Shown here in pieces: positions 40,270-64,000 of a stretch of DNA of 64,000 nucleotides. Positions within the stretch are counted from its first letter, which is position 1. Each line of letters starts with the position of its first letter. A model generated the notes under the pieces. That model was not told the DNA's origin and did not search any database. It worked only from the letters and a program-made list of their open reading frames with translations. The DNA is from Candidatus Latescibacterota bacterium (GTDB taxonomy: Bacteria; Latescibacterota; UBA2968; UBA8231). The stretch spans positions 608,001-672,000 of the forward strand of contig OZ242214.1 of assembly GCA_965206595.1 (NCBI GenBank), written 5' to 3'. A program made the translations under genes and the position numbers.

Positions 40270-40461
40270 CTTTGGATTCCGATTGGGATTTCCCCTTCGG
40301 CACTCCATTCTCAAGAAGCATTTCGACTACTTCTATCAGATTTCTGTTCAGTTCGACCAATGTCTCGCCCTGAGAATGGGCGCCTGCAAAACCGGAGACA
40401 TATCCGACATATAGCCCCGTATCCTTGCAATATCCTACGATTGGCGAGGAAGTGCATTCAT
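40270..40461 (-). pseudogene. Degenerate HicB-family antitoxin
   Basis: Minus strand reads DTGLYVGYVSGFAGAHSQGETLVELNRNLIEVVEMLLE; out of frame with the upstream ATG. Confidence 0.6.
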
Positions 40462-40524
40462 ACCTCTCTTTGGAGGGGGAGAAACGTTCACGGTTGCGGC
40501 GAACAGCCTATTCGACTCCCGAAG

Positions 40525-43629: not shown

Positions 43630-43670
43630 TGGACTATTACCTTACCATTTGCGGTTGCGGAGACAACCGA

Positions 43671-44312: not shown

Positions 44313-44339
44313 GGCCAAATCCTGAGGTGGAAAAAAGCC

Positions 44340-44440
44340 CAATGCTCCCGTGCCGAGGGTCATGCGAAGGGCACCGCTCCCGCTCGGCCCCTCAACTTTG
44401 CCTTGGAGAATGATCAACCCCTGCCGTAGATCGAAAGGAC
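44340..44440 (-). pseudogene. Retropepsin-like aspartic protease N-terminal fragment
   Basis: FDLRQGLIILQGKVEGPSGSGALRMTLGTGA (degenerate LDTGA). Confidence 0.4.
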
Positions 44441-44636
44441 CCTCACAGGACGACCATGGTGTCCCGGCCATCAACAACGTTCATCACCTGTAACCTGACA
44501 TTCGTTTATCTTCCACCTCCGCATGGGCGATGTCAAGCTTTTGCTGAATGGCGGACGGTGCCCAAGGCGCGCGCCCAAGCAGGATGGGGATTGGCGACCC
44601 TCCGTCAACTCACCCCAAAGCCCAGGAAAGGAACTA

Positions 44637-47525: not shown

Positions 47526-49846
47526 TGTTCACCTCCGATGATCGTCGATTGCTGCGCGATGACGTGACCGCCGGCATCGAGAACGACAATCGCCGCCGTT
47601 GTTCCCTCGAGCTCATCGTCGCCGACCAACAGGCTTGCGGTGCCATCGCCATCCACGGGACGCGCGCTGCTGACGCTCGAATTCGCGTCTCCTATGCGGG
47701 TCCTCAGATCGACCGACAGTCCCGGAAGGACGGGCTCGACCCGCACCCGGCACCGGAAGCCGACCCAGGAGAAGTCGGCAATGCGAATGTCGACCGTTCC
47801 AGGGCCCGCCCCCCCGGTGATCCGAATAACCGGCACCAGGCTCTCCTGGAGACTCAAGCCTCCGTGGGCGTACTCGTTACCCTCTACGAAGCAGGCGATT
47901 CCGGGCGCAACTGCGATACGTTCCTGGGGGTTCCAATCCCAACTCACAACCGGCGTTTCGACGGCCGAGCCGCCCTCGATGGCGGCGCAGCGCGCCCAGC
48001 GGCTGATGGTCAGGTACCTGGGGAGGTCGACCTTCGGCAGGCCGCCCGGAAGCCACAGCCAACCGTGATCCGTCACCACGCGAACCTCCTGCCAACCACC
48101 TTTCAGAAGCATCCCGATCCGTTCGCGCAGCAGCTCGATCTGTTCATCAATCCGGGCGGCGAGCCCCGCTTGCAACGAATGGCCCAGCCTGTCGAGCCCC
48201 CCGTGTTCCGTCCAGGCGCAGCCGGACGAGTCGCCCGTTTCGTTCGCCTGGAGGTACTGATACCCGGCAGCCTTGAGGAGCTCGCGAAACCGATCTGTGG
48301 TCAAGGGGCGTTCGGTCTCCGCGGTTACCGGCCGAAACTCCTCCCCCAGGGAAAGGCCCGTGATGCTCTTGATCACCGGCGAGACCGCCGGCTTCGCGGT
48401 CGCGGTGACGGTAGGGTGGGCGGACCATTGCGTTGCCGTCGACACGGAACGGCCCCCTGCCCGCAGCAGCTCAACGAGGCGCTGGGACACGTCGAAACGC
48501 AGGCCGTCCGCGAAGAGAATCACCGTTCCGGGTTCAATCGGCGTATCATACGATTCCTGTCGGTCGCGTACCACACCCGGCCGTTCCAGCGCCTGCAGAT
48601 GCCGGGCTGCGGACTCCATCCAGGGGCGGTAGATCGCGTCCAGTGCCCGGCTAACGGCTTGGGTGTCAGCGGCCGATTTCACCGCGGCCATGCTGCGGAG
48701 GGCGGCGTCATCAACCTTCCAGGCCTCCTCGGCGTACAGCTCTGCCATCTGCGCAATGGAGGCACCGCCCAGCTCGCTCGACGCGCCCGACGCCAAAACG
48801 GCCAAGTGCTCGAGAGCGTCCGCCAGAGGCGCTTGGCCGAGCTTCGCCCAGACCCAGCCGCGTCGTTCTCCGTGCTTCTTTTCGAGCTCGATGACTTTTT
48901 TTCGGGCTGCGGCCGGTGGGCCTTCGAGTTTCTGAAGAGCGTCCCGCAGGGCGTTTTCGTTCGCTTCGTTTTGCTGGGGCCAGGAAGAACCTTGGGCGAA
49001 CAGGTCGCTAGGCCCGGCCTTGCCCAACAACTCGGGCACACCCACGAACGGCGCCGGGGACTCGGCAAAACGGTTCCACACCGGTCCCCAGGCCCCTTCG
49101 CGCTTCCCGAGCCGCTCCGCCGCGGCCAGGTCACCGTCCTTCTCCGGGTCGAAGCCGAAATCCGCCTGGCAACGCGACCGGAAGGCATTCCACCTTGCAC
49201 CAGTCCAGCGGGTCCTCACTTGCTCGGAGTCGCTCATCCAGGTCAGCACGTCCCTGACCGGATCGTCGGAGAAGAGCCGGTCGAAATCCTCCGCTTCGAG
49301 GCGCCGGCCTTGCAGCGCCTGCACCGGGGTGGCAGCCAGCTCCGCGAGGGCGCGGTGCATGGCATCACGAGTGGCCGCGTCCTTGGCGACGTCCAGTCCA
49401 AGGCCGCCGTCCGGGGAGGCGAGGAAGGCCTCCACCGTCCAGTCCCTGCCGTTCTTCTGTTTCCAGCAGGCGCCCCGGTACTGGAGCTCGACCAGGGGTT
49501 TCAGGTGATGCGGGCAGGATTCCGCTGCGCCCAGTTGCCCGCGGCCCACACCGGGCAGGTAGAGGACCGGCGTCGACTCGCCGGGGATCTGGGGAGGCAC
49601 CGGAGCCCTCTCGATGACGCAACGCAGCCAGATCGCGGGTCCGCTGCGGTTCTCAGGATCGTACTCGCCCAGGACCAGCAGATGCGGCATGAGAGGGAGC
49701 AGCTGCGGGATGATGGGCTGCCAGCGTGCGTCGGGATCCGTCCACAGGATGGCAGCCGGCTTCACCGCGTCGTTCGGGTTGTGGTCGGCAGCGGCTTCGA
49801 GGGACGCCTTCAGTCTTTCGACTACGGTTGCGGTTTGTGGGGTCAT
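47522..49846 (-). CDS. pglZ: BREX phosphatase PglZ (type B-like)
   Basis: FADGLRFD, PTVTATAKP, DRLGH, VVTDHG and YAHGGLSLQE motifs. Confidence 0.9.
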   Translation of the reverse strand: MTPQTATVVERLKASLEAAADHNPNDAVKPAAILWTDPDARWQPIIPQLLPLMPHLLVLGEYDPENRSGPAIWLRCVIERAPVPPQIPGESTPVLYLPGVGRGQLGAAESCPHHLKPLVELQYRGACWKQKNGRDWTVEAFLASPDGGLGLDVAKDAATRDAMHRALAELAATPVQALQGRRLEAEDFDRLFSDDPVRDVLTWMSDSEQVRTRWTGARWNAFRSRCQADFGFDPEKDGDLAAAERLGKREGAWGPVWNRFAESPAPFVGVPELLGKAGPSDLFAQGSSWPQQNEANENALRDALQKLEGPPAAARKKVIELEKKHGERRGWVWAKLGQAPLADALEHLAVLASGASSELGGASIAQMAELYAEEAWKVDDAALRSMAAVKSAADTQAVSRALDAIYRPWMESAARHLQALERPGVVRDRQESYDTPIEPGTVILFADGLRFDVSQRLVELLRAGGRSVSTATQWSAHPTVTATAKPAVSPVIKSITGLSLGEEFRPVTAETERPLTTDRFRELLKAAGYQYLQANETGDSSGCAWTEHGGLDRLGHSLQAGLAARIDEQIELLRERIGMLLKGGWQEVRVVTDHGWLWLPGGLPKVDLPRYLTISRWARCAAIEGGSAVETPVVSWDWNPQERIAVAPGIACFVEGNEYAHGGLSLQESLVPVIRITGGAGPGTVDIRIADFSWVGFRCRVRVEPVLPGLSVDLRTRIGDANSSVSSARPVDGDGTASLLVGDDELEGTTAAIVVLDAGGHVIAQQSTIIGGEQ

Positions 49847-50574: not shown

Positions 50575-51843
50575 CTACTCAGTCACCTCCGGAGCAGCCG
50601 CGTAGATGGTGAGCAGAAGCTCGGCGTCGCCGATCATCCGGTAGGTCGGTGTCTTTCCCGAGAGGCGCTCGCTGTTGTCGAGGATGATCCGCACCCCTTC
50701 CCCACGGCGGTCCATCAGGGTTGCGCGGTCGGTGGTCAGCCAGGAGTGGTCCGGCACCGGGATTCGCGCCAGCAGACTGGCAACAGTCTCGTTGCGGGCC
50801 GACTGAATGTGCACCAGATCGTCGACGCCCATCGAATTGGGAATCGACCCGGGCGAGTAGATCTCCAACCGGTCATCGAAGAGCCGCAAGCGGATCTTGG
50901 ACCCGTGGATGGAGTAGTCCCGGTGCGCGACGGCATTGACCACCGCTTCGAAGACGGCGGCCATGTCGAACTGCGGTCGGTCCACCCGTCCCATGTTCTT
51001 GAAGGCCGCGGTCTTCATATTCTTGGCGACGAAGCGGCAGGCGTTCTCGACCTGCGCATCCAGCGGTCCGGCCACGTCTTCGGCGTCGAGCTGGTAGGGA
51101 TCGTCCGATCCCACGCGGACTTCGGTGCCGCGGTAGGCAACCGCCTGAACGTAGGCACTGGGCAGCCACTCCCGAGGGTCCGTCGCAGCAACGAGAATGC
51201 CCGCAACGGTCGGCTTGAGGTTGCCCCGTTCATCGGTTCGCGCCAAGTGCAGGTTTGACAGGAAGCGGGAAGACTCCGTAGCCGACCGGGGGGTTCTGAA
51301 CCGCTCGACCAGGTCATCCTGCAGGTCGTCGAGCGAGGCCTCGGCCACGACCTCCTCGTCGAATCGCACCAGACCGGTCCGCGAACGCTGCGCCAGCAGG
51401 CGCGCGAGATACTCGGTGGACATGGGCCGCTTTTCGCTCCCGACCCGGAGCAGGTATCCGCGGGGGCTGCGATGAACGAACAGGCTGGGCGCAACGTCGA
51501 TCTTGATTGCCGGAACCTCGCCCCCCGTCGCGGTCGGCAGCTCAAGGCGCTCGATGATGGGCGCAACAGAGGGGTCGATCGAGTCCCGGCAGATCTCGCG
51601 CACGAGCAATTCCGCCGCATCGAGACCCTCGGCCGGGATGCCCAGGACCTCGCGGGGCTTGTCCAGGACGCCCAAGACGATCACGCCGCCGTGGCTGTTG
51701 GCAAAAGCAGCGATTTCGTCCGCGAGGGAGTCGCGACGCGGCTCCTTGACCTGTCTGCCTGCCAAGCGCACTTCCTTCAACTCCAGATAGGAGTCCTCGC
51801 CCAGGCGGATCTTGTCGAGAAGTTCGCGCTTGCTATCGAACAT
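50575..51843 (-). CDS. AlbA_2 (Schlafen) plus HATPase_c_4 protein
   Basis: GEDSYLELKE, AFANSHGG, EAVVNAVAHRDY and SPG motifs. Confidence 0.85.
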   Translation of the reverse strand: MFDSKRELLDKIRLGEDSYLELKEVRLAGRQVKEPRRDSLADEIAAFANSHGGVIVLGVLDKPREVLGIPAEGLDAAELLVREICRDSIDPSVAPIIERLELPTATGGEVPAIKIDVAPSLFVHRSPRGYLLRVGSEKRPMSTEYLARLLAQRSRTGLVRFDEEVVAEASLDDLQDDLVERFRTPRSATESSRFLSNLHLARTDERGNLKPTVAGILVAATDPREWLPSAYVQAVAYRGTEVRVGSDDPYQLDAEDVAGPLDAQVENACRFVAKNMKTAAFKNMGRVDRPQFDMAAVFEAVVNAVAHRDYSIHGSKIRLRLFDDRLEIYSPGSIPNSMGVDDLVHIQSARNETVASLLARIPVPDHSWLTTDRATLMDRRGEGVRIILDNSERLSGKTPTYRMIGDAELLLTIYAAAPEVTE

Positions 51844-54658
51844 CGGCCCGCTCCTGTCCGAGGCGGCGGTAGCGACGCTCGAAAGCCTCCCGCCCTCCTT
51901 CCATGATGCGGCAGACTTCCTCGCGCATGGCCGACTCCTGCAACGAACCACGTTGCGTGACCACACACTGGCCGTTGCAGAAGTCGAGGGCGTGCAGCAT
52001 TTCGGCGTCGCCGTTGACGACGATGTTGGGATTGTGGGTGACCACGACGATCTGTCGGCGGCGCTTGTTCTCCCGCATCTGCCGCACCACCAGGTCGTAG
52101 ATCAGGTGGTTGTCGAGGTCGTCTTCGGGCTGGTCCAACACCAGCGGCTCGTCGCCGTGGGCAAGCAGGAAGGCGAGCATGGCGGCTGCTCGTTGCCCGG
52201 CGGAAGCCTGGCCGATGGGGCGAAAGCCGGTGCCGTCGCCCTTGGGGCTGTACTCCACCCGCAAGGCGTCTTCAGGGAACCACGCGAGCAGGCCGTCCAG
52301 CAGGGCGGGCGAGCGTTCGGTCTCGCGCTCGAGGTAATTGCTGAAGGCACCCCCGAAACGGCCGTTACCTCCCGCGCTTGCCGTCTGGACACGTTCCTTC
52401 CATTGCGCGATGCGCTGTTCCATCTCCCGACCGTGCTCGTCGGCGGACTCTGGAAGGTCCGCCAGCAAGTCCACGACATTCCCCCTGGGACTGCCCCCAT
52501 CGTCCGTAAGGATGTCACTTTGGAAGCGGTTGCCGGTCACGTTGAGGACCTCCCGCATGGAGCGCTCAACGACGCGGGCCTCGTCGCCATATGGCCGTAT
52601 CGAGATGCGCACGAAGCGGTTCCCGGTAAGAGCTTGGGCGAGAAACGCCGCGCGTGCGGCAGTCACGGCGCGGCGGCAGTCGAGGACGCGATCCAGGCTC
52701 TCGCGAGCATGCGCGGCCAGCCGATCACGCTCTTCCGCCAAGGAGTCCAGATCGGCCAGTTCCCCGTCGAGCCGCTGGCGATCCTGGGTCAGGCGGCCGT
52801 ATTCGCTCGGATCTGCGACGCCCTCGGCCTGAAGGTCGCGAACGAGCGCGTCGTAGTCGTCCTCGGCCTGCCGGGCCGCGGCCGTCCAGGTGCTGTCTGC
52901 GAGTGCCCGGCGCTGCGCAGCCAGCGCCTCACTCAGACGCGCGGCCGCCCTGGGCAAGTCCTGGCGGGCGGCTTCGACCGAAGAGGCCAGGTCAGCAATG
53001 ATCGCCGCGGCGGCCGCATCCTCCGGTGAGTCGTCGAAGGTCCCTGCCGGCAGATCCTCGGGCAGCAATTCCTCGGCGCGGGCTTCGATTCGCCCGGCGA
53101 TCTCCTCGGCCGTCTCGAACTGCCGCTCGAGCTCACGGCGCTGTCTGCGCCGGCGCTGGTAGGTCGCAAGAACGGCCTGATGGCCTGCCTCCTCGAAGCG
53201 GCTGAGCTTGCGGTGGGTGTCCTGCCGTTCCACCTCCAGACCGTCCCGGGCCTGCAACTGCGTCTCGAGTTCCCGCACCCGCGCCCGCAGCGTCTGGAAG
53301 GCGTTGACGGCTTCGGCAAGCTTCCGCTTCGGCCCGTCCGTATCTGCGGCATCGTCGATCACGTCGAGCAGCGCCTGCTGGTTGTCGCCGGCCAGTTCGG
53401 CGATCTGCCCCTGGTTGAAGATGCGCAAGGGGAAGCGTTGGCTGTTTACGCTCTGTACCGGCGACTCCTGCCAGGCAGCGCCGGCCTCCTCCTCCACGAC
53501 AACACCCTTGGCCTCCTGGCGCCAATGGACGCGATGCCGCACTTCGTCCCGGACCACAGTCCACGTGATCGCGGTCGAGGCCCGCAGGCCGCCGTCCTCA
53601 CTCCGATGCGAAGGCAGGCGGTCGAAACGCTCGAAGGTCCGCCGCACCGGACTGTGGGTGTCGAGACGGGTCAAGTCCGTGTGGCGCCTCGATGCGAGCC
53701 TGAGAGCATGGACCACCGTGGACTTTCCGGTTCCGCGCCCGCCGACCAAGGCGTTGAGCCAGGGGCTGAACTCGATCCGGGCGGGTTCGCCGCGCCCCAT
53801 GAAGCGGGCATCGCTGATCTCGATGGATTCGATGTAATGGGTCGGCAGCCTGTTCGGATCGAAGGGGTCAGGATCGTCGCTGCGCCGGATGGAAAAGCCG
53901 GGTCCGTCGAGCAGAGCCAGACGCAGTCCTTCCAAGGAGGGTACGGACATCTTCACCCAAGTGGAGTGCGAGCCGGGGGTCCGCTCTCCCGACGCAAGAG
54001 CCGGGTGATGAGAATCCGATCCGAGCACCTCGGCCCATGCGAGCTTGCGCTGCCGGTAGAGTTCGTGCGGGTCCGACGCCGGATCGACCACCTCCATGGC
54101 AAACAGGTCGGAGCAATCGAGCAGGGGGCCGAGGCTGCTTCCGGGCAACCCCCAGGCCCCTGAGGGGCCGTCTACATGTGCGGGAATCGCGATGGCTCCG
54201 TTCTCCGCGATGGCCTTCACTACTTCAATGACCGACGCATCGGCGGCCCGGTCGCCTTGCCCGCGCACACCCTTGTATCGGACCGCTCCGAGGAGCCCGT
54301 TGATGTCTGCGGATCCCTTCGCCGTATCGAAGAGGGCGAGCAGGTGAATGCCGGCGTTGGCGGTGATCTCGACGCCGGGGAAGAGACGCAGCGGACAATA
54401 GTCGGGGTGGTCCTGGAGTCCCTTCAGCGCCTCTTTCAGCTTGTCGATCCACTCGCCGGAGTTATGGTCCGTAACCGCCACGCAATCCACTCCAGCCCGC
54501 ATGAAGCCAAGCAGCCAGTCCTCCGGTGTGATTTCCCGTAAGGAATCCTGGTCCTTTCCCTTGCCATAGTCCGCAGATGCGGGCGTATGGGTGTGGAAAT
54601 CGAACTTCCACCACCGTGCCCCAGGGTAGATCCACTCCTGTCCTGTTCTGATTGTCAT
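51833..54658 (-). CDS. PHP phosphoesterase fused to SMC/ABC ATPase (TrlF/Ppl-like)
   Basis: DFHTHTPAS, TDHN, GVE, AH and SDSH; GGRGTGKS; SAGQ; LDQPEDDLDN; VTHNPN. Confidence 0.88.
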   Translation of the reverse strand: MTIRTGQEWIYPGARWWKFDFHTHTPASADYGKGKDQDSLREITPEDWLLGFMRAGVDCVAVTDHNSGEWIDKLKEALKGLQDHPDYCPLRLFPGVEITANAGIHLLALFDTAKGSADINGLLGAVRYKGVRGQGDRAADASVIEVVKAIAENGAIAIPAHVDGPSGAWGLPGSSLGPLLDCSDLFAMEVVDPASDPHELYRQRKLAWAEVLGSDSHHPALASGERTPGSHSTWVKMSVPSLEGLRLALLDGPGFSIRRSDDPDPFDPNRLPTHYIESIEISDARFMGRGEPARIEFSPWLNALVGGRGTGKSTVVHALRLASRRHTDLTRLDTHSPVRRTFERFDRLPSHRSEDGGLRASTAITWTVVRDEVRHRVHWRQEAKGVVVEEEAGAAWQESPVQSVNSQRFPLRIFNQGQIAELAGDNQQALLDVIDDAADTDGPKRKLAEAVNAFQTLRARVRELETQLQARDGLEVERQDTHRKLSRFEEAGHQAVLATYQRRRRQRRELERQFETAEEIAGRIEARAEELLPEDLPAGTFDDSPEDAAAAAIIADLASSVEAARQDLPRAAARLSEALAAQRRALADSTWTAAARQAEDDYDALVRDLQAEGVADPSEYGRLTQDRQRLDGELADLDSLAEERDRLAAHARESLDRVLDCRRAVTAARAAFLAQALTGNRFVRISIRPYGDEARVVERSMREVLNVTGNRFQSDILTDDGGSPRGNVVDLLADLPESADEHGREMEQRIAQWKERVQTASAGGNGRFGGAFSNYLERETERSPALLDGLLAWFPEDALRVEYSPKGDGTGFRPIGQASAGQRAAAMLAFLLAHGDEPLVLDQPEDDLDNHLIYDLVVRQMRENKRRRQIVVVTHNPNIVVNGDAEMLHALDFCNGQCVVTQRGSLQESAMREEVCRIMEGGREAFERRYRRLGQERADVR

Positions 54659-54809
54659 GGCTGCCTTCTCTCCGGCTGTTCTCGGGGCGATTGCTTCCCG
54701 GCTGAAGTCATGTACACCACTTTCACGCGCTCATCGGTGAACTCTCGCCGTCTCGCCAAAACCCAGGGGGTGCCGAGCGAGAGCGGCAATTGTGCGCACG
54801 ATTCCGCGC

Positions 54810-55961
54810 TCATTTCGCACGATTCCCGGGCACGTCCAGGGACGGCTCGGGGAGATAGCGGACACCCCTGCCCTTTCCCTCCATACGCAGGAGACCGCTC
54901 TCGACGAGTCGCCGCAGCTCGCGGGCGGCGGTATAGCGGCTGACCGCGAAGATCCTGCGGTAGTCGGCGTTGCTCAGGCTCGGGTGCCGGAGGAAATGCT
55001 CGCGCAGGCCGGCAAGACGGGAGCTGGCGAATTCGGCGGTCCCGGGGATTGCATCCAGCGGCCCAGCCACCGGCTCGTTGTAGAGACGGACGGAGAACAC
55101 GCCGTCCTCCATCTCGACCTCCGGTTCCCGCAGAAAGCTCTCCTCCATCTCTTCGAAGATCCGCGCGACGCCCTCTCCGTCGCGCATGACTCCGGCATCG
55201 GCCAGCACCCGCACGATGAGCGGATTGCGGGTGGCGTGGGCAGGAAGGCGCTCTCGAAGCCTGGCGAGGGTCACCGGGGGAAGGAGGTCTCCGGGGCTCG
55301 ATACCTCCATCCGGTCTTCATAGAACCAGGCTTCCACTTCGCGCCCCTGGTACTCGTAGTCCCGGTGAGCGAAGGCGTTGACGATCGCCTCCTGCCAGGC
55401 GAAGTCGGGATATTCCGGGACCTCTTCGAAATAGAGGCCGTTGAGCTTTTCGGAGCGGCGGACTTGCTGGCCGGCGAGCCGGTGGGCTTCGGCAATCGCC
55501 TTCGCGAGCGGCGGGTCGGCGCGGCCGACCTGCGTCACGTTTCTTCGCCGGCCATGCTGGCGGCTCGTCCCGGCGACCCGAAACAGCCGCAGTCCGGCGC
55601 GCGGATGCCACCGGAGCGCGGGCGCCCTGGCGAACAGCAGGAGCGCGGCATTCGTGACTCGCCACTCCTGTGCGGACTGCTCGATCAGGCCGTAGTAGCT
55701 GAGTGCTTCCGTGACCGGGCGCGCTCCGACAGGGGTCCGGGCCAGGAATTCCCGGGCAAGCTCCAGATCGAGGTCGTCCAGGGTGGCGTCCGAGCGGAAG
55801 CGCTGCTCGTAACCGACCCGGCGGTAGACTTGCTTGCGTTCGTTGATGACTTCCTGCGGCTCTCGCGTCACGTGGTCGCCGCTTCTCGACAGCAGATGTC
55901 CGATTGCGTGCAGGTCGTCCTTGCCCTCCACCCACAGAATGGAGGTTTCCGGCTGAGACAT
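54810..55961 (-). CDS. Chimera: DUF3226/TOPRIM-like start fused to a HATPase_c_4 plus HTH region lacking AlbA_2
   Basis: LWVEGKDD, then EAIVNAFAHRDY, SPG, RNP and a C-terminal HTH. Confidence 0.6.
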   Translation of the reverse strand: MSQPETSILWVEGKDDLHAIGHLLSRSGDHVTREPQEVINERKQVYRRVGYEQRFRSDATLDDLDLELAREFLARTPVGARPVTEALSYYGLIEQSAQEWRVTNAALLLFARAPALRWHPRAGLRLFRVAGTSRQHGRRRNVTQVGRADPPLAKAIAEAHRLAGQQVRRSEKLNGLYFEEVPEYPDFAWQEAIVNAFAHRDYEYQGREVEAWFYEDRMEVSSPGDLLPPVTLARLRERLPAHATRNPLIVRVLADAGVMRDGEGVARIFEEMEESFLREPEVEMEDGVFSVRLYNEPVAGPLDAIPGTAEFASSRLAGLREHFLRHPSLSNADYRRIFAVSRYTAARELRRLVESGLLRMEGKGRGVRYLPEPSLDVPGNRAK

Positions 55962-57055
55962 CAGCGAACCTCGATTTCCTGCTCCACGGCGATCCCGATC
56001 TGCTCGCCCCGTAGAGGCACGGCATGATCGAGGTCAGCATGCACCTTTTGCAGGGAGACCTTCTCCGCAAGGCCGGGTCGAGACCTGACCAGTGTTCCGA
56101 GCCCGCGAATGCAGTCATGGCTGTGCGTCGTTGCGAATATCTGCACGTTGCATCTGTCCGCTACCTCGACGAGGAGCCGCCATACATCCTCGAGGACGGT
56201 CCAGTGCAGGCCGGAGTCGATCTCGTCGATCAGCAGGTATCCGTCCGTGGCGGAGACGAGGGCCAGGCGCAAAGCCAGCAGGCGGCGCAGGCCATTTCCG
56301 TAATTGCCGATCGGCATCCGGCGTCCTCGGTCTCGAAGGCCGACCAGGATCCCCCCGGGGCCGGGTCTGCCAGTCAGAAAGTGAATCGAGTCGATTTCGG
56401 GCACGAGAAGCCGCATGTCTTCTGCGATTTCACTCTCAAGGCCGTCAGCAAGAACTCTGTCCCATGCGTCTCCCATACGCTCGGATGCAAAGGATTCCAG
56501 CCCGAGAAAGCGAACCGGGGACGGGGAGAGGCCATTGCGCAAAGATGGCCGCCGCCAGAAGTCATGCAGGATCGTCCCGTCTTCGGCCATCGGTAGAGCG
56601 ACTGCCTCTTCCGCTGCGCCGAGCGCAATGCGCAGGCCGAACGCGGGTACGATCTCCTCGTCCTCATCGAGTTCCCGCCGCCGCACACGATTCCTTCCGG
56701 TCTCCCATAGATCGGCGTCTTCTCCCACTTCATCGACGGACAGTATCGTCGCCGACAATTCGCGATCGTCGTGGGAAGACAACTTGAAAGAGGCGCCGGG
56801 TTCGCAAGTGTGGCCGAAGAACAAGTGGGAGGCGTTCACTTCATGCCGTCGCCGATAGGAGATCCCTTCGTCATGGCGCTGGGCGACCTCGGAGAAAACA
56901 GAAAGGTGGCCGTTGGAAACGAGGAGCTCGACCGCTTCGAGAAGGGACGTCTTGCCGCAGTTGTTCTTGCCGACGAGAAGGTTCACGGTTGTTAGTTCGG
57001 CCAACTCGTAGGATTCGAAGGCGCGGAATCCACGCAGCGCGAGGGATTTCAGCAT
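55961..57055 (-). CDS. ABC-family AAA_15/AAA_21 ATPase
   Basis: GKNNCGKTS, YGNG, LLIDEIDSGLH and ATTHS motifs. Confidence 0.85.
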   Translation of the reverse strand: MLKSLALRGFRAFESYELAELTTVNLLVGKNNCGKTSLLEAVELLVSNGHLSVFSEVAQRHDEGISYRRRHEVNASHLFFGHTCEPGASFKLSSHDDRELSATILSVDEVGEDADLWETGRNRVRRRELDEDEEIVPAFGLRIALGAAEEAVALPMAEDGTILHDFWRRPSLRNGLSPSPVRFLGLESFASERMGDAWDRVLADGLESEIAEDMRLLVPEIDSIHFLTGRPGPGGILVGLRDRGRRMPIGNYGNGLRRLLALRLALVSATDGYLLIDEIDSGLHWTVLEDVWRLLVEVADRCNVQIFATTHSHDCIRGLGTLVRSRPGLAEKVSLQKVHADLDHAVPLRGEQIGIAVEQEIEVR

Positions 57056-57167
57056 CCTGGTGCTACCTCGTTTCGGATCACGCAGGATCCGGGAGAGTCG
57101 ACCCTCATGTTGAGGACTCCCCAAGGGTACCGGGGGGGCCGCGCCTCGATCAAGACGCTGAAGGTCC

Positions 57168-60100
57168 TCAGAGACACGGGTCCGCTTCGTCTCTGGCGCG
57201 CTGCTTGTGCGCCATGGTCAGATGCAGGTCGTTGACCCGGTCGCCGGTGAACTCGCCGTTGCGCCAGAACCAGGGGAATTCCTCCCTTGGACGCAGTTCC
57301 TTGTTGTCTTCGGGGTCCCAGTCGTCGTCTTCAAGCCACGGAGGCTTCGACCGTTTGCCGCGGGTCAGGGGCTCCTTGCCGCGGTCCTTGCGCCAGTGAA
57401 TGTTCGGCTTGGAGCGCAGGATACCCGCGCCCTTCTTCCCGCCGGGGATGTCCTCCGCCATGAAGGGGCGGATGTTCAGGCGCACGCCGTCGTTGATGTC
57501 CGGCTCCCAGCCGACGGGCTGCTCCTTGAGGGGCTTCCAGCGGACGAATATGTCGAAGGGCGGTTCACCTTCGAGGATGGCGGAAAGGCGCTTCTGCAGC
57601 TCAAGGGCCGCGAGGAGACGGTCGTCCGCGCCGCCTTCGCCGCGTTTCACGCCGTCCTGCTGGCGGGTAATCCAGTCGCCGAGATAGCTGTAGGTCAGGG
57701 ATTCGAGAAGCTGGCGGCCCTTGCCACCGCCTTCGGCCAGCTTGTGGTAATTGACCAGGGCTTGGAAGCCGTCGCGACGGCCGTCATGGATGTGCCAGAC
57801 GAAGGGGCGGTGGTGAAACAGCTTGCAGTGTTCGTCGAAGAAACCATGGCGCAGCCAGTCATCGAGAGTCGCGCTGCCTGCCTCGGCAAGAAGCTTGCTG
57901 AGCACACCGTCGTTCCATTCGTCGCGGAAGGAGGATGCCAGCAGTCGGAGGAGCCGGTCTCCCGCGGGCGGCTCGCCACGTACGGAAGGGATGCAGACGA
58001 TGCCGTCCTCGTCGGCGTGGGAAAGCAGTTCCTTGCAACGTGCCACCCATTCGCGCTGCTCGTCGGCGAGCTCCATGCCAGCATCCTGCTCCGCGGGCCA
58101 GCGGTAGCCGAGCAGGCGGGCGACGGCGACCTGTAACACAGTGGGATCGGTGCGGTGAGGACCGTGAGCGGTCCATTTGCTGGTTTCGTCCCAGACGACC
58201 GAGCCGCAGGGGTGGCCGTGGAAGATCCACTGGGTGGGATCATCGGAGTATGGTAAGGGAAGGCCGTTGGGGTATCGTTCGGTTGCGATCTTGGTCCAGT
58301 GGTCGAGGTCGAAGGGGACTTTGGCTAGCGTGGCGTTGGTGACCTTGAGTGTCTGGTCGATGCGACGAACCGCCTTGTGGTACTCGGGGGAAGAGCAAAA
58401 GCACCAGATGGCAGGAAGGTGTACTGGATCCTTTGGAACAACCGTTGCGCAGTTCATATCCCAGGGACTTCCCATGTTCAAGGTGGCGGGAAGTTCTACC
58501 ATTTGTCGTACGGCTACGCCAAGTTTCTCCCAAGCAGCTTGTCCTTGGATTCGTGCGGCTCCAGATGATCCGAGATATCCCTTTCCATCTTCCCAAAGGA
58601 ATACTTGATGCCGACCACCGAAGTGCCCTGTTTCATCACCGGTCGACTGAAATGTCTTCCACGCACCGTAAATCCCATGCGTTTCCCAAAACGCAAATAT
58701 GAAGCGCGGGTTGTCTCCCGTTGTGATTCCCTGATAGGAGGATGTGTATTCATCGAGGAGACTGGTATCCGCTGCCTGATCCAATGTGACTCGCGCATCT
58801 GGGTTCTTTAACTGCCGGGCCTGCTCGACACCTTGGATGGCCGACTGCGCTAACCGCTCAGCCTTCTCGGCAGGGGTGCGATAGTCGGAAACGTCCAAGC
58901 CATACATCATGCCGGCTCGTGTCTTTTCGCTGAACCGCTTGCCCTTATGCTGGCGGGGATTGTCTCGGCTCAGAGTGAGCAGGACCGCCTTGACGACCTC
59001 GCCGCTGATGGTTTCGAACGCACCCGGGCCCAACCAGGCGAGCAGATGCCAAGTCTCCGTCTTCAGCAGTCTCTCCCGGAGTTTCTTGTAGCTCTTGAGG
59101 GACAGCCAGTTCTGCGGCAGCACGAGGCTGGCGGTCCCGCCCTCGGCACACAGCTTCAGGCAACGCTGCAGGAACACGGTGGCCAAGTCGTTCTTGGCGG
59201 CGGGGTATTTCGCTTGGCAGAAGTCGCGCAGGGCCTTGCCCTGCTTGCCGCGGGCGAGATAGGGCACGTTGGTGATCACGAGGTGATAGCTTCCTGCCAG
59301 CAACTCCGCCGCCCGCGCCATCCCCTGCGCGGCCACGGCCCGTTCCGCCTGCTCGTCGGTGGTCAGCTCCTGTTCGAGCACCGAGGCGAAAAGCGACCGC
59401 ACCGACTCGTAGTCGTGCTGAAAGAGATCCCCCTTCAGCTCACGTGGATCGATGAGGGAGCCGCGCTCCGGCGCCTTCCCGAAGAGATCGTGGAGCTCTT
59501 CCAGGCTGTTGCGGACCTGCGTCGATAACAGGTTGTCATCGACCCCGAAGAGGTTGCGATCGGCCGGCATCCCTCCGGCGTCTGCGGCCTGCTGCGCCAA
59601 CTCGATCCACTGTTCCTTCGTCGCGTTGGGGGCGAGGCCGGAGCAGGCGAGGTGCAGCTCGGGCAGAGGGCGGTACCCGCCCGCTTCGGGGTACGTCCAG
59701 GCGGCGAGAGCGAGGGCGAAGGCCGCAAGCTCGACGCAACGGGGGTCGAGCTCGAGCCCGTGCAAGTTCCCCCCCAACACCCCGTCGACGGCGTCGCGTA
59801 CGGAAAGCCCTTCCCGCTCCACGCGCATGGGAACCAGCATGGAAAGGGCGGCGACCAGGAAGTGACCCGAGCCGCAGCAGGGGTCGAGGATCTTCAGTTC
59901 TGCGAGGTGCTTCGGCCAGCTGTCGAAGGCACCGGCGGCAGGGCGCCAACTTTCCTGCTCCGCAGTGTCCTCACTTCGCACGAAGTGCAGGAAATCGAGG
60001 GGCGCGCCGGGGACCGCCGCCTTCCGGCGCAGAGCGGCTTCGGTGTCAGCTTCCCGCAGATCGGCTTCGCTCAGGAGGCGTGACGCCCACCACGCTCCCA

Positions 60101-60785
60101 GGGTGTTGTCGAGCAGGAAACTCACCATGTAAGGCTCGGTGAAGAGCTGCGTTACCGCAGGCAACTCGTCGGCGCCAACCTTGACCTCGGAACGATTGAC
60201 CTCGGCCTTCTTCCTAGACTGCCAGAACTGGTAGACCCAGCCCAGGGAATCGGTCGCCGTGAAGACCTCGTGCGGTAGACCCTCGACAAGCCCTTCCAGC
60301 TTCAGCCGGTGTTCCCGCGCCATGCTGACCTCGAAGGCCGGGTGATCTGGCCGAAATACCTGGGGCAGCATGCCATGGGCGAAGCGCGCGGCCATCGTCC
60401 ACTTGTCGGCACCCTCCTCCTTGCCTAGTTCCTCGCATTCTTCCAGGGTTACGGCGACGCCCAATTCCGGCTCGATAAGCAGTTGGTTCTCCGCGAGGAA
60501 ACGGGAGAACAGCATACCGTGCCAGTGCTCGTACGCGCATTCGTGCACCAGGTGCCCGATCTCATGACTTCTGGACTGCGGGTCCCGGGAGTCGCCGAGT
60601 TGCCGGGCGCGGGCGCGCAGCCGCTGGCGCAGCGCGCGCTGGCCGGGGCTCATGTGATCGTACGGTTCGCGGTAGTGCACGGCGAGCGTTTCCAGCGCCA
60701 CGCGGGCGCCGGTTTCCGCGACGTCTCGTGCATCCGCGATCGTCCGCTCAAGTTGTTTCCGCAGGTTTGGGGCCAGCGTCTTCAT
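57168..60785 (-). CDS. pglX: BREX PglX-like N6-adenine DNA methyltransferase
   Basis: LGWVYQFW, TQLFTE, DPCCGSGHFL, TNVPY and PDINDGVRLNIRP motifs; context with pglZ and brxL. Confidence 0.82.
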   Translation of the reverse strand: MKTLAPNLRKQLERTIADARDVAETGARVALETLAVHYREPYDHMSPGQRALRQRLRARARQLGDSRDPQSRSHEIGHLVHECAYEHWHGMLFSRFLAENQLLIEPELGVAVTLEECEELGKEEGADKWTMAARFAHGMLPQVFRPDHPAFEVSMAREHRLKLEGLVEGLPHEVFTATDSLGWVYQFWQSRKKAEVNRSEVKVGADELPAVTQLFTEPYMVSFLLDNTLGAWWASRLLSEADLREADTEAALRRKAAVPGAPLDFLHFVRSEDTAEQESWRPAAGAFDSWPKHLAELKILDPCCGSGHFLVAALSMLVPMRVEREGLSVRDAVDGVLGGNLHGLELDPRCVELAAFALALAAWTYPEAGGYRPLPELHLACSGLAPNATKEQWIELAQQAADAGGMPADRNLFGVDDNLLSTQVRNSLEELHDLFGKAPERGSLIDPRELKGDLFQHDYESVRSLFASVLEQELTTDEQAERAVAAQGMARAAELLAGSYHLVITNVPYLARGKQGKALRDFCQAKYPAAKNDLATVFLQRCLKLCAEGGTASLVLPQNWLSLKSYKKLRERLLKTETWHLLAWLGPGAFETISGEVVKAVLLTLSRDNPRQHKGKRFSEKTRAGMMYGLDVSDYRTPAEKAERLAQSAIQGVEQARQLKNPDARVTLDQAADTSLLDEYTSSYQGITTGDNPRFIFAFWETHGIYGAWKTFQSTGDETGHFGGRHQVFLWEDGKGYLGSSGAARIQGQAAWEKLGVAVRQMVELPATLNMGSPWDMNCATVVPKDPVHLPAIWCFCSSPEYHKAVRRIDQTLKVTNATLAKVPFDLDHWTKIATERYPNGLPLPYSDDPTQWIFHGHPCGSVVWDETSKWTAHGPHRTDPTVLQVAVARLLGYRWPAEQDAGMELADEQREWVARCKELLSHADEDGIVCIPSVRGEPPAGDRLLRLLASSFRDEWNDGVLSKLLAEAGSATLDDWLRHGFFDEHCKLFHHRPFVWHIHDGRRDGFQALVNYHKLAEGGGKGRQLLESLTYSYLGDWITRQQDGVKRGEGGADDRLLAALELQKRLSAILEGEPPFDIFVRWKPLKEQPVGWEPDINDGVRLNIRPFMAEDIPGGKKGAGILRSKPNIHWRKDRGKEPLTRGKRSKPPWLEDDDWDPEDNKELRPREEFPWFWRNGEFTGDRVNDLHLTMAHKQRARDEADPCL

Positions 60786-60831: not shown

Positions 60832-61284
60832 TCACCGAAAGAAGGCGTAGGCGGCAAGACCAAAAAAGAGCAGGAAAAAGATGCATGGCAGGCCGACCTC
60901 GACGTTCGTCAGCTTCCAATAGCGGCTTCGTTCCTTGCCCTCGGCAAGCAGTTCCCATTCGCGCTTGAAGAAAGGGTAAGCCAGCTTCTCTTCGAGTTCG
61001 TGCAGGGCCTTGAACTTCCCTGAATTGAGCTGCCGGTAGGAACGGATCACGATATACCAGGAGACGGACAGCAACGAACCGATGGCTCCGGCTGTGAACA
61101 GAATGATCCCCACGGGGACGCAACCCACCCCGAACCTGAGCAAAGCGCCGAGAAACACCATCAGGCCGACGAGCAGGCTGACGTACAAGCGATTCGCTCC
61201 TTCCCGCCGTTGACTCACTTTATCGGCGAGTTCGGCGTGGAGCTTGTATATCTCCAGAAGCTCTGTTTGTCTTGGGTTCGTCAT
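60832..61284 (-). CDS. RipA/SLATT-like small membrane protein
   Basis: YKL..ELADKVSQRREGAN; two to three TM helices; W...IRSYRQLNSGKF...ELEEKL. Confidence 0.7.
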   Translation of the reverse strand: MTNPRQTELLEIYKLHAELADKVSQRREGANRLYVSLLVGLMVFLGALLRFGVGCVPVGIILFTAGAIGSLLSVSWYIVIRSYRQLNSGKFKALHELEEKLAYPFFKREWELLAEGKERSRYWKLTNVEVGLPCIFFLLFFGLAAYAFFR

Positions 61285-61697
61285 CACGCCAGCTCCCTGA
61301 TAGGGCCTACGATGCTGTCGGTGTTCCATCCGACGATGCTGTCAGCCGCTTGTTTAACACGCACAGAGATTTTCTCGCTTCCCCATGGTTCGACTGCGAC
61401 TATCGGCTTTGATGGATCGAACGACTCCACTGCCAAGTCTATTTCCTTGTCTATCCACTTACTGTACGTAGCATAGACTCCGGCCATAATGAGCACAACG
61501 CTGCCGAAGGCCATTTTTGCTCGAATCGCCTCCCGCAACTTCGCATCTGTTCCTGCATGATAAATTGGATCATCTCGGGGTACCGAGTAGTCGGCAAACT
61601 TGAAGTAGCTCTTCGCTCGCAGGAGATTGACGAGCTTGTCGTCGTATGCATCCGAATAACTCCACGAATGGCTGATGAACAAGTGATATGGCTTCAT
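61284..61697 (-). CDS. TIR-like (MTH538/DUF1863, ThsB-like) protein
   Basis: LFISHSW, DYSVP, SKWIDKEI (putative catalytic Glu), KPIVAV. Confidence 0.85.
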   Translation of the reverse strand: MKPYHLFISHSWSYSDAYDDKLVNLLRAKSYFKFADYSVPRDDPIYHAGTDAKLREAIRAKMAFGSVVLIMAGVYATYSKWIDKEIDLAVESFDPSKPIVAVEPWGSEKISVRVKQAADSIVGWNTDSIVGPIRELA

Positions 61698-61788
61698 GTC
61701 TTCATGGCTTCTTCCTTCGTTGATAGTCCCGAGGCTGCTAAACAGGACACCGTCGAGCCATTGCACGGACTCAGCATCAATGGGCGTG

Positions 61789-63984
61789 CTAAGCCTCTTC
61801 TTTCAGGATAGATCTGAGACGGGCAGCATCAACGATTCTACCGCATCGATCGAACGCCTTTAGCAGTAAGGGATGGACTCGGCGGCGTGTCTCTGAAGAC
61901 GAGTGAGTTTCCAACGGTGCTAAAATTTCAATTATGCGCTGATACGAACCCTTTCTTTCTAGAGCACGGGCAAGTGCAACGCAACATATTGGGTCATTGG
62001 GTTCCTCTTCGCGCGCTTGCTCGAACTTTTCGATGGCTCGATCAGTCGCATCGGGCTCGCCAGAGTCCCGCAGAAGCATGCCAAATTCCCGGCAGATGAG
62101 GGCTCGTTCATGGCCTCGGCTAGGAGCATTAGCAAAAGCACGCTCATAGAGGATCAATGCGCTTGCTTTGTTGTTCCTCTCATGTCGTTCGAATTCGCCA
62201 AACTCGCGCGCAGCTCTCCAGCTTCTCGGGTTCCTTTGCAAAGCCTGCTCGAACATCCGATCGGCCGCATCAAAGTCCCCTCGATGTCTTGCCGCCTTCG
62301 CGAGATCTACGAGCGACTCCTCACTAGAGCCGCGTCCGTGCCGAATCTCTCGAACAACCTGACGTTCCTGAGGATTCCTTATATCCGTTGCTTCATACCA
62401 ATCAGACAGCTTGCGGCGAATCTGTGGTTCGAGTTCCCTCTCTTTGATGACTTCGGAATATGCGAATGATCGAACAATAGGGAGTAAGGTGTAACAGTAA
62501 TCATTGAAATCGGGGTCGAAAAGCCGCTGTATCAGGGCGTCTGATATAAGGTCTTCAGTTGCATCCATGACGGTATGATGAGGATAGGAGCAGCCGATCT
62601 GAAGTGCCTCTGCCGAAATTGGCCGCTGAAAGAGAGAAAGCACTTGTAGAATTCGTCTCTCGTAGCCTGACATGTCATCAAATACTCGCCTGAAGCAGAA
62701 TTCAAGCAACTCCTCTCCTTTAGGACGTCTAAGTCTTTGAGTGATTTCGTCAGATTGACGCACCGCGTCCGCGGCCGACTTGAAATGAGTGAGAGACCAG
62801 CGAATCGCTAAGGGAATTCCATCGCAGGCACTTCCGATCACCTCTGCTTCCGAATTAGACAGTTCACCGATGTAGCTGAGTCCATTCTCATTGGCGAGAG
62901 ATTTTATGAAGGTGCGCGCCTCCTTGTCGGTCAAGGGTCCCAAATCAACGGGATGGACAGACACTCGTATTGTACTGCGCCTTGAAGTCGTGATCGCCCT
63001 TACGCCAACGGGTAGATTGTCGAGAAACCGCACGAGTCGCGGATCGTCGACCGTTTCGAGATTGTCGACGTAGAGAAGGCCATTGCTGTTCGTGAGAACT
63101 TCACGGGCAAGTACTTCCTTTTCGCTTGAATTAGCCGTCTTTAATTCTGGCAAGTCGAGAACCTCACTGATGGCCTGTAGGAGTCCTTCGAAGCTTGTGA
63201 TGCCCTGGCTCAAGGCTCGTATCCCCGATGATGTCAGCTCGCGATCCTTGGCAGTGACCGATATGATGAAATCAAATTGATTCTTGCTGTACGCCCGCAT
63301 GACCGCCCAAGTGGCGAGAGCAGTTTTCCCAGCACCTCCAATGCCAACAATCGCGGTCACCGCGGTTCGGGGATCTGAGAGCGCCGTCATGACGGCTCGG
63401 CAGGGTTCTTTTCTCTCTACAAAAACCTTGTACTCTGGTGCAAGGATGCGAAAGAACGGAACATCAACCTCATAGACTCGTCCGAGAGTGGGTGCAGATA
63501 GATTCCTTGAACTCTCAGCTGTTTCTTGCGGGTCGAGGACTTTGCTCTCGTCCCCGTCCCTGATTGCCGAATACCCCTTCCGGAAGCGGCACTTGCCATC
63601 GGTCTCTGGGGCGTCACCAGAGAATCTTACAAGAACGGGCCCCCTTGGAGGTATCACCGCGAGACCGAGGTATCTTTGATCTGCTTGGATGAAGTGGCGG
63701 TGGTATTCGACCCAGACTCGATCGCCGAGGAACCGACGCAGTTGATCATTGACCAGCTTGCTATCCAGCCGCCTACTGCAACCATGGAAGGTGAAATCAG
63801 TATCGCTTACCCCGAAAATTAAAACACCACCTTGCTTGTTGTGGAAGGCCAGTACGTCCACGGCCACCTCCGCCCACGCGTTGTGATTATGCTTCCCACG
63901 ATGCGGGCAATCGGCTTTGTAGTCCCAAAGGTCTGACTCAGTCCGGAAACCATGACGGACTACAGGCGGATTCCCTTCAAACAT
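61789..63984 (-). CDS. AlbA_2/Schlafen - NB-ARC (STAND) - TPR protein; possibly 5'-partial
   Basis: E..WDYK, AFHNKQGGVLIFGV; GIGGAGKT; LYVDNLE; ITTSR; GIPLAI; C-terminal TPRs. Confidence 0.82.
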   Translation of the reverse strand: MFEGNPPVVRHGFRTESDLWDYKADCPHRGKHNHNAWAEVAVDVLAFHNKQGGVLIFGVSDTDFTFHGCSRRLDSKLVNDQLRRFLGDRVWVEYHRHFIQADQRYLGLAVIPPRGPVLVRFSGDAPETDGKCRFRKGYSAIRDGDESKVLDPQETAESSRNLSAPTLGRVYEVDVPFFRILAPEYKVFVERKEPCRAVMTALSDPRTAVTAIVGIGGAGKTALATWAVMRAYSKNQFDFIISVTAKDRELTSSGIRALSQGITSFEGLLQAISEVLDLPELKTANSSEKEVLAREVLTNSNGLLYVDNLETVDDPRLVRFLDNLPVGVRAITTSRRSTIRVSVHPVDLGPLTDKEARTFIKSLANENGLSYIGELSNSEAEVIGSACDGIPLAIRWSLTHFKSAADAVRQSDEITQRLRRPKGEELLEFCFRRVFDDMSGYERRILQVLSLFQRPISAEALQIGCSYPHHTVMDATEDLISDALIQRLFDPDFNDYCYTLLPIVRSFAYSEVIKERELEPQIRRKLSDWYEATDIRNPQERQVVREIRHGRGSSEESLVDLAKAARHRGDFDAADRMFEQALQRNPRSWRAAREFGEFERHERNNKASALILYERAFANAPSRGHERALICREFGMLLRDSGEPDATDRAIEKFEQAREEEPNDPICCVALARALERKGSYQRIIEILAPLETHSSSETRRRVHPLLLKAFDRCGRIVDAARLRSILKEEA

Positions 63985-64000
63985 CAGGGCTGAGACGCTC

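Follow-up and report, generated by a model that had tools for sequence, protein, structure and literature searches.

Gene content of the locus

The window analysed here is a stretch of 64,000 nucleotides from a Candidatus Latescibacterota bacterium (contig OZ242214.1, positions 608,001 to 672,000). At its end three genes encode an AlbA_2/NB-ARC/TPR protein of the STAND type, a small TIR protein and a small membrane protein of the 8xMP family. They sit between brxC and pglX of a complete type 1 BREX operon, whose six core genes (brxA, brxB, brxC, pglX, pglZ and brxL) are all present in one orientation. The genes are as follows:

45471..47525, minus strand, BREX BrxL (PADLOC BrxL 2e-288)
47522..49846, minus strand, BREX PglZ (PADLOC PglZ 1.7e-298)
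50575..51966, minus strand, cargo, AlbA_2 (Schlafen) + HATPase_c_4 protein of 463 aa (Pfam SLFN_AlbA_2 1e-14, HATPase_c_4 8e-18)
51833..54658, minus strand, cargo, Ppl-like ATPase of 941 aa (PADLOC Ppl 1.1e-122)
54810..55961, minus strand, cargo, HATPase_c_4 protein of 383 aa (Pfam HATPase_c_4 8.5e-19)
55961..57124, minus strand, cargo, AAA_15/AAA_21 ATPase, PADLOC candidate PDC-M38A (PADLOC 8.3e-64; Pfam AAA_15 1.1e-20)
57168..60785, minus strand, BREX type 1 methyltransferase PglX (PADLOC PglX 1672 bits)
60832..61284, minus strand, proposed effector, 8xMP-family membrane protein (PF24838) of 150 aa, three membrane helices predicted
61284..61697, minus strand, ThsB-type TIR protein of 137 aa (Pfam ThsB_TIR, PF08937, 9.3e-16; PADLOC ThsB 6.4e-11)
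61789..64000, minus strand, STAND NTPase (AlbA_2/NB-ARC/TPR), truncated at the window end; in full length the gene reaches to 64050 and encodes 753 aa

The other core proteins are recognised by PADLOC as well (BrxA 4.4e-97, BrxB 1.7e-73, BrxC 1502.9 bits). With the NCBIfam model BREX_1_MTaseX the PglX protein reaches 324.8 bits, under the cut-off of 500 for this model. In total the operon carries nine cargo genes in two slots, the second of which lies between pglX and pglZ and includes the PDC-M38A ATPase. The brxC/pglX slot of this BREX lineage also takes other cargo, for example HEC-01A ATPases.

A first-pass annotation of this DNA had described the three genes as a co-oriented group in lower-GC DNA directly upstream of pglX. 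Orientation and junctions agree with our analysis: STAND and TIR genes are separated by 91 bp, the TIR stop and the 8xMP start have one base in common (TGATG), and pglX starts 46 bp past the 8xMP stop. The GC content is 0.50-0.55 over positions ~61000-64500 and 0.61-0.69 in the BREX core genes, and this single block spanning all three genes is compatible with their joint arrival. The position relative to pglX was correct but incomplete; because brxA, brxB and brxC stand further upstream and pglX downstream, the three genes lie inside the BREX operon. A scan for promoters and terminators gave counts at the level of shuffled sequences. As already remarked at first pass, no ThsA of the SIR2-SLOG or Macro kind is encoded nearby: neither Pfam nor PADLOC matched such a Thoeris type I or type II effector in the TIR-8xMP pair or in any of 23 ORFs around it (from position 34827 to ~14 kb past the window end).

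The TIR protein and its membrane partner

The start of the TIR gene was set at the ATG that matches its relatives. The protein contains the intact WIDKEI motif reported before (as KWIDKEI), and the Glu of this motif, E85, is the same in all 53 relatives of one alignment and in all 25 of a second. We take E85 to be the catalytic Glu of TIR domains. Among known structures the protein matches PDB 1eiw (MTH538) at 9.5e-6.

The membrane protein matches PF24838 at 4e-33, with 114.6 bits (cut-off 30) and over profile positions 1-135 of 136; a PF24838 search of the window's own genome gave the same result. At 50% identity the family comprises 2180 clusters (E <= 0.001). The protein is confidently modelled as a three-helix membrane protein (AlphaFold2, pLDDT 93.1), with helices at residues 4-51, 58-98, 105-112 and 125-149. 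Hydrophobic segments (33-51, 58-80, 129-149) are found besides segments rich in K/R (1-32, 81-128). Eight residues (R26, R27, N31, Y83, K90, E98, E109 and Y122) are conserved to at least 90% in 73 sequences of 32-60% identity, and they fall into the K/R-rich segments beside the membrane helices. Prediction of a homo-oligomer with four copies yielded scores of 0.15 and 0.08 (mark 0.42), which count neither for nor against an oligomer.

Of the earlier description of this protein as RipA/SLATT-like, the transmembrane character holds. No SLATT family was matched at E <= 0.01 in the Pfam profile search, and "RipA" turned out to be only the name of an automatic ESM Atlas cluster ("RipA family octameric membrane protein", PF24838 in 93% of members). 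DUF2270 (PF10028) was likewise not matched at E <= 0.01, and PF10028 occurs in none of 168 genomes of the phylum. Structural comparison of the model gave no match against the PDB at E <= 0.001 with Foldseek. VIA-align against 48,161 chains found only generic helical bundles, the best Z of 10.2 lying below the level that this tool regards as meaningful for helical proteins. The best E-value of a sequence search against the PDB was 0.19, and no TIR fusion was seen among the 11 longer 8xMP proteins scanned. Our literature search, by title, returned nothing relevant on 8xMP and nothing on PF24838, did not connect RipA with Thoeris, and gave irrelevant results for an octameric membrane protein RipA; it found no experiment on any 8xMP-paired TIR.

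Linkage of the TIR and 8xMP genes

In 80 loci of 8xMP relatives a TIR gene of this subfamily is located directly upstream in 59 and elsewhere in the locus in three; in the remaining 18 it was not found. The reverse comparison started from the relatives of the TIR, with 580 or more loci, and covered the best 80; 71 of these 80 have an adjacent 8xMP gene, namely 61 with TIR followed by 8xMP, nine with 8xMP followed by TIR and one with 8xMP on the opposite strand. The other nine split into one with 8xMP ~1 kb away, five without it and three cut by a contig end. Within the own phylum, TIR is adjacent upstream in 13 of 18 regions with a PF24838 match. According to their record titles the relatives of both proteins come from many phyla of bacteria and from some archaea. 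In one locus the order is TIR, DUF4231/SLATT_1 protein, TIR, 8xMP; there 8xMP occupies the place of a SLATT effector beside a TIR of the same subfamily. An ADP-ribosylglycohydrolase gene was considered as a further partner of the TIR and rejected, since tblastn matched it in only one of 80 loci, and this match was a distant one.

TIR and 8xMP thus form a widespread, linked two-gene unit and a candidate anti-phage module. The first-pass idea of a signal-producing TIR combined with a membrane effector is borne out as a kind of unit by this adjacency, which holds in many phyla and whichever of the two genes comes first. Since no TIR of the subfamily was found in 18 of the 80 8xMP loci, 8xMP may also act alone or with other partners.

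The STAND gene

The AlbA_2-NB-ARC-TPR architecture proposed for the STAND protein is confirmed by Pfam, with SLFN_AlbA_2 at 5.9e-9 (residues 16-115), NB-ARC at 8.7e-10 (193-419) and several TPR families (553-692). The gene had been given as 61789-63984. Its stop end is right, while 63984 is an internal Met; we place the start at 64050, past the window end, because the relatives have ~750 aa and the 22 residues upstream of this Met are common to them. An alignment of 17 sequences shows no variation in the Walker A motif GIGGAGKT, in the N-terminal residues E38, D43 and K45 or in a block with D329 and E332. Judged by this conservation of Walker A and AlbA_2 motif residues (17/17), the gene is intact.

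The protein has the layout of Avs-like antiviral STAND proteins, i.e. a STAND ATPase with Walker A/B between an effector domain at the N-terminus and repeats at the C-terminus. It matched no Avs model in PADLOC or NCBIfam. Pfam gave no SIR2 or OB match, which means that the domain set of Avs9 (AlbA_2, SIR2, NTPase, TPR, OB) is incomplete here.

One module or two

The first-pass annotation had combined the three genes into a single NLR, TIR and pore module, in which the STAND protein would sense the phage and activate the TIR, whose signal would then open the membrane protein. Common orientation, the short gap and one-base overlap and the shared low-GC block speak for such a system, but since the whole BREX operon is co-oriented the orientation of the three genes says little. 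Co-occurrence was examined with relatives of up to 76% (8xMP) and up to 58% (STAND) identity, leaving out the closest ones (83-91% and 84-98%, respectively). By tblastn the STAND gene was found within 7 kb in none of the 80 loci of 8xMP relatives, and neither TIR nor 8xMP was found within 6 kb in any of 75 loci of STAND relatives. NB-ARC was absent from the nearest upstream ORF in the 80 8xMP loci and from the nearest downstream ORF in 79. In the surroundings of 36 full-length STAND relatives each neighbour family is limited to two loci at most, an observation that concerns gene context only and not function. Of the three genes only TIR and 8xMP recur together, which is the outcome that the first-pass annotation had itself named as refuting its proposal. 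Therefore the STAND gene is not part of the TIR-8xMP unit, a three-gene pathway appears very improbable, and the tempting picture of a "plant-like NLR-TIR-pore" system is removed as false.

We consider it likely that two independent defence units are present as cargo at the brxC/pglX junction, a Thoeris-like TIR-8xMP cassette and a single-gene STAND system. The order STAND, TIR, 8xMP is then best explained by stacking in an insertion slot and not by a pathway. The low-GC block common to the three genes is a point against this independence, as it fits joint arrival. For the pair, the best reading is by analogy a Thoeris-like cassette with a TIR-made signal gating a membrane effector, although the 8xMP model is without a specific structural relative and the TIR is missing from part of the 8xMP loci. 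On infection the TIR would make a NAD-derived signal, which would bind to an oligomer of the three-helix 8xMP protein at its conserved cytoplasmic face with positive charge; the oligomer would breach or depolarise the membrane and so abort the infection. The STAND gene is best read as a separate single-gene sensor of the Avs-like kind that carries a putative Schlafen-type effector domain, against which stands the missing Avs model match. Here the TPR part would bind a phage cue, the NB-ARC ATPase would oligomerise and the N-terminal AlbA_2/Schlafen-type domain would act as nuclease effector.

A different division of labour within the pair would make the TIR the killing effector, which depletes NAD, and 8xMP its sensor, anchor or regulator instead of a signal-gated pore. 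The TIR protein is only 137 aa long and without a sensor domain, and the limitations given in the available text of Yirmiya et al. (bioRxiv 10.64898/2025.12.03.692087) allow for NAD depletion in unverified putative types. On the other hand, TIRs of the same subfamily pair with a SLATT/DUF4231 protein as well, in type VII, validated in the same text, SLATT effectors answer a signal made by the TIR, and 8xMP has a conserved, charged face on the cytoplasmic side that would suit ligand binding. We regard NAD depletion by the TIR as unlikely. Quite improbable in our view is a functional tie between the pair and BREX or restriction-modification, such as a backup triggered by a block of the host system. 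Nine of the 80 8xMP loci are indeed flanked by BrxC and PglX, two of them with a BrxC only 40% identical to the one here; in four loci the pair is flanked by genes for a ResIII-type helicase and an N6_N4 methylase, and in further loci a DNA methylase is the nearest neighbour. However, the other 71 of 80 are elsewhere, the neighbours are unrelated in most loci and include housekeeping genes, the slot in this BREX lineage holds other cargo too (the HEC-01A ATPases), and many embedded auxiliary genes have been described in BREX loci (PMC12839542, in the text available). Varied cargo, unrelated neighbours and embedded auxiliary genes together mean that the nesting is explained by insertion slots. 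The first-pass idea that the genes might guard BREX is neither established nor refuted by the nine flanked loci and the 71 others. A further reading, in which 8xMP would be a new ligand-gated oligomeric membrane effector reading a TIR signal still to be identified and the nesting in BREX or restriction-modification operons would reflect selected coupling (co-expression or backup), seems rather improbable; if it were true, this nesting would be more than the use of insertion slots.

Comparison with known systems

The locus resembles the BREX loci with embedded effectors of PMC12839542 in having a type 1 BREX, defence genes between the core genes and an AlbA_2 + HATPase_c_4 protein. In the available text of that study an architecture of Schlafen RNase, minimal histidine kinase and wHTH is widely linked to BREX loci. 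The cargo differs: here it includes the TIR-8xMP pair and STAND, and the main text of that study never mentions "TIR" or "Thoeris". The present locus shows the extent of defence-gene loading that is possible in one BREX operon.

With the Avs/AVAST proteins, including Avs9 as far as described in the available text of PMC12680541, the STAND protein has in common the single gene, N-terminal effector, central STAND ATPase and C-terminal TPR. Avs9 is a bacterial AlbA_2-bearing STAND whose killing of cells depends on its AlbA_2 site (same source), and conserved acidic and lysine residues are likewise present in the AlbA_2 domain here. Unlike the described Avs9, the protein has 753 aa and lacks the SIR2 and OB domains. 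The accessible part of PMC13581612 contains nothing on AlbA_2 or NB-ARC.

For the membrane protein the cluster name suggests a comparison with RipA, presumably that of Francisella. The latter is, in the available text of PMC2767360, a cytoplasmic membrane protein of ~18 kDa required for intracellular growth. It is a small membrane protein like 8xMP, a likeness by description and cluster name, and differs from the proposed role of 8xMP in being described for intracellular growth and not for phage defence.

The closest parallels are found among the Thoeris systems. The pair shows the general features of Thoeris genes, a ThsB-type TIR with conserved Glu and an effector gene kept beside it. In the text available, Yirmiya et al. 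(bioRxiv 10.64898/2025.12.03.692087) list 29 putative Thoeris types, report validated types V and VII in which a TIR is combined with a membrane effector, and predict charged inter-protomer pockets in the effectors of both. Type V (ThsF, DUF2270) and type VII (ThsH, SLATT) are, like the pair, operons of two genes, one for a small TIR of the ThsB type and one for a small membrane protein with several helices, and a conserved charged cytoplasmic face would be common to their effectors and 8xMP. The likeness to type VII extends to the TIR, as a member of the pair's subfamily also adjoins a SLATT/DUF4231 protein. In contrast to both types the putative effector of the pair belongs to PF24838 and has neither a SLATT nor a DUF2270 match (E <= 0.01). 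Being abundant, strongly conserved and spread across phyla, and having a small putative effector that should lend itself to study, the TIR-8xMP pair makes a good candidate for a further Thoeris type.

Gene order in the BREX operon

In a complete type 1 BREX operon, the brxC|pglX junction holds five cargo (non-core) genes, three of which are the STAND, TIR and 8xMP genes. The gene order was read along transcription, including 12 kb past the window end (locus L002). The first-pass annotation had placed the three genes upstream of pglX, which is correct but incomplete, as they sit inside the operon itself.

Genes treated, in order of transcription, all on the minus strand (slot 1, brxC|pglX junction; slot 2, pglX-pglZ junction)
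beyond window end (-): brxA, BREX core (PADLOC, 4.4e-97)
beyond window end (-): brxB, BREX core (PADLOC, 1.7e-73)
beyond window end (-): brxC, BREX core (PADLOC, 1502.9 bits)
L002:5424-7151 (-): 575-aa ADP-ribosylglycohydrolase-domain protein, cargo slot 1 (Pfam PF03747, 2.4e-31)
L002:4170-5381 (-): HEC-01A-type AAA_21 ATPase, cargo slot 1 (PADLOC)
61789 to window end (-): STAND gene, cargo slot 1 (Pfam)
61284-61697 (-): TIR gene, cargo slot 1 (Pfam, PADLOC)
60832-61284 (-): 8xMP gene, cargo slot 1 (Pfam)
57168-60785 (-): pglX, BREX core (PADLOC, 1672 bits)
55961-57124 (-): PDC-M38A-type ATPase, cargo slot 2 (PADLOC)
54810-55961 (-): HATPase_c_4 protein, 383 aa, cargo slot 2 (Pfam)
51833-54658 (-): Ppl-like ATPase, cargo slot 2 (PADLOC)
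50575-51966 (-): AlbA_2 + HATPase_c_4 protein, cargo slot 2 (Pfam)
47522-49846 (-): pglZ, BREX core (PADLOC, 1.7e-298)
45471-47525 (-): brxL, BREX core (PADLOC, 2e-288)

The domain calls made earlier for the three genes were borne out, and both the overlap of TIR stop and 8xMP start (TGATG) and the 46-bp gap before pglX are present. The STAND gene exists as listed, but the listed Met is not its start: the true start lies 22 codons upstream, beyond the window end, and the residues upstream of that Met match those of 753-aa relatives. The membrane protein, previously called SLATT-like, has no SLATT match and is a clear member of the Pfam 8xMP family (114.6 bits).

A second junction of the same operon, between pglX and pglZ, is loaded with four cargo genes (50575-57124, minus strand). 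Counting the STAND gene, the operon encodes two AlbA_2 (Schlafen-type) proteins. The ADP-ribosylglycohydrolase gene follows directly after brxC and precedes the HEC-01A-type ATPase gene, the two lying about 4.2-7.2 kb past the window end; in related BREX loci (L003) this ATPase has a DUF4276 protein after it instead. An ADP-ribose hydrolase two genes away from the TIR is suggestive, but a tblastn match was found in only one of 80 loci. Further genes of defence type flank BREX: a type IIG restriction-methylase (PADLOC 8.8e-244) and a PDC-S01 candidate are encoded at 34827-44477 (minus strand), and past brxA there is a pentapeptide-repeat gene, then an FRG-domain gene (PDC-S15; L002:12175-12991, plus strand). 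In L082, a locus of an 8xMP relative, a pentapeptide + FRG protein resembling the one past brxA is found near the TIR-8xMP pair.

TIR and 8xMP as a two-gene unit

At E <= 0.001, 1413 of 2168 candidate proteins are relatives of 8xMP, and clustering at 50% identity gives 2180 clusters for the family. An HMM made from 53 relatives of the TIR was run on the best 80 of 235 8xMP loci (54-76% identity); a TIR was counted as adjacent when it lay on the strand of the 8xMP gene and ended within -60 to +150 bp of the start of that gene. Such a TIR was found in 59 of the 80 loci; three have a match elsewhere in the locus (in L034 a TIR_2 protein upstream) and 18 have none, at least one of which (L050) encodes another ThsB-type TIR on the opposite strand. 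Reciprocally, of at least 580 loci holding TIR relatives the 80 best were scored: TIR precedes 8xMP in 61 and follows it in nine, the rest having 8xMP on the opposite strand (one), about 1 kb away (one) or not at all (five), or ending at the contig end (three). Within the window's phylum PF24838 was over cut-off in 21 of 168 genomes (in neither of the two genomes of the window's genus), and a TIR adjoins upstream in 13 of 18 PF24838 regions, including TIRs that match the subfamily HMM weakly. Record titles place relatives of the pair in many phyla and some archaea. Because the adjacency survives gene-order change and spans this host range, it shows that TIR and 8xMP are a functional two-gene unit.

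Proteins with 55-76% identity to 8xMP and TIR turn up in metagenome-assembled genomes from very many phyla (record titles of L003-L082 and L207-L286), including Acidobacteriota, Chloroflexota, Pseudomonadota, Cyanobacteriota, Gemmatimonadota, Poribacteria, Spirochaetia and some archaea, which points to a wide horizontal spread of the cassette. One ThsB-type TIR directly upstream of an 8xMP gene (L029:5853-7004, plus strand) carries a fused Phage_Mu_F-like domain (PF04233, 3.2e-24), which could act as a sensor or decoy resembling a phage head protein. Two more TIR_2 genes come after the pair in some loci from the same phylum as the window (L164:596-1459, minus strand; L165:1857-2885, plus strand), giving a multi-TIR arrangement.

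The STAND gene and the use of the BREX junction

STAND, TIR and a pore protein had been proposed to form one system. The STAND gene does not travel with the TIR-8xMP pair: tblastn found it in none of the 80 8xMP loci (within 7 kb), and neither TIR nor 8xMP occurs in 75 loci of STAND relatives (within 6 kb), so that the triad as one system is not supported. NB-ARC is also absent from the nearest upstream ORFs of 80 and the nearest downstream ORFs of 79 8xMP loci. Around 36 full-length STAND relatives no neighbour family is present in more than two loci, and the STAND gene was not found in 40 related genomes. The low GC reported for this stretch was found, and as the three genes share one low-GC block and the survey covered relatives of at most 58% identity for STAND and 76% for 8xMP, the closest relatives being 84-98% and 83-91% identical, they may have arrived together. 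Given the wider survey, joint arrival would still not amount to a single system.

In nine of the 80 loci the 8xMP gene has BrxC and PglX on its flanks, and in six of the nine the pair occupies the brxC-pglX interval. Two of the six (L078, L081) have a BrxC only 40% identical to the one in this operon while their pair is 58-66% identical, an indication that the same junction has been used repeatedly. HEC-01A ATPases also occupy the slot in several loci. In four loci the pair is bordered by a ResIII-type helicase gene on one side and an N6_N4 methylase gene on the other; its remaining neighbours are unrelated, many being housekeeping genes. In our reading the nesting reflects use of an insertion slot; the pair may have a functional link to BREX, but this is unsupported. 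The pair is an intact copy of a widespread, predicted TIR + membrane-effector module and the STAND gene its unrelated Avs-like neighbour, both being BREX cargo.

Comparison with known systems

The STAND protein belongs to a well-conserved family of proteins of about 750 aa (431 matches at E <= 1e-10 among 8000 candidates scored, 50-60% identity over full length). All 17 sequences compared keep the Walker A motif GIGGAGKT and the DNLETVDD block unchanged, together with the N-terminal residues E38, D43 and K45 in the AlbA_2 domain. Among described kinds the Avs family comes nearest, and no Avs model in PADLOC or NCBIfam matches the protein. In PMC12680541 the toxicity of AlbA_2-bearing bacterial STANDs (Avs9) is reported to need the AlbA_2 site; the STAND protein studied here has neither the SIR2 nor the OB part of Avs9.

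In the TIR, E85 of the KWIDKEI motif is invariant among aligned relatives. The structure model of 8xMP is confident (pLDDT 93.1, pTM 0.82) and has four helices; "octameric" comes from the Pfam name only. Three hydrophobic stretches (33-51, 58-80, 129-149) are linked through an uncharged loop of 6 residues. Two K/R-rich segments flank them and would lie in the cytoplasm by the positive-inside rule. Residues conserved in 90% or more of 73 diverse sequences, including R26, R27, N31, Y83, K90, E98, E109 and Y122, fall within these segments. One locus (L028:5503-7459, plus strand; same stretch in L286) encodes TIR, a DUF4231/SLATT_1 protein, TIR and 8xMP; identity to the window TIR is 58% for the SLATT-side TIR and 44% for the 8xMP-side TIR. 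A ResIII/TnsA-like helicase-nuclease gene and an N6_N4 methylase gene border these tandem Thoeris-like pairs.

The work of Yirmiya et al. (bioRxiv 10.64898/2025.12.03.692087) bases new Thoeris types on one TIR cluster with alternative neighbours, reports defence and signalling for TIR + DUF2270 (3'cADPR) and TIR + SLATT (cADPR), and predicts charged pockets between effector protomers. From E85, the 8xMP model with its conserved K/R segments, the tandem locus and the pattern in that work we infer that the TIR would make an ADP-ribose-derived signal gating a putative oligomeric 8xMP assembly, which would then damage the membrane; signal, binding and oligomeric state are all putative. With SLATT and 8xMP as alternative neighbours, the window TIR subfamily has the same pattern as that used by Yirmiya et al. 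for Thoeris types.
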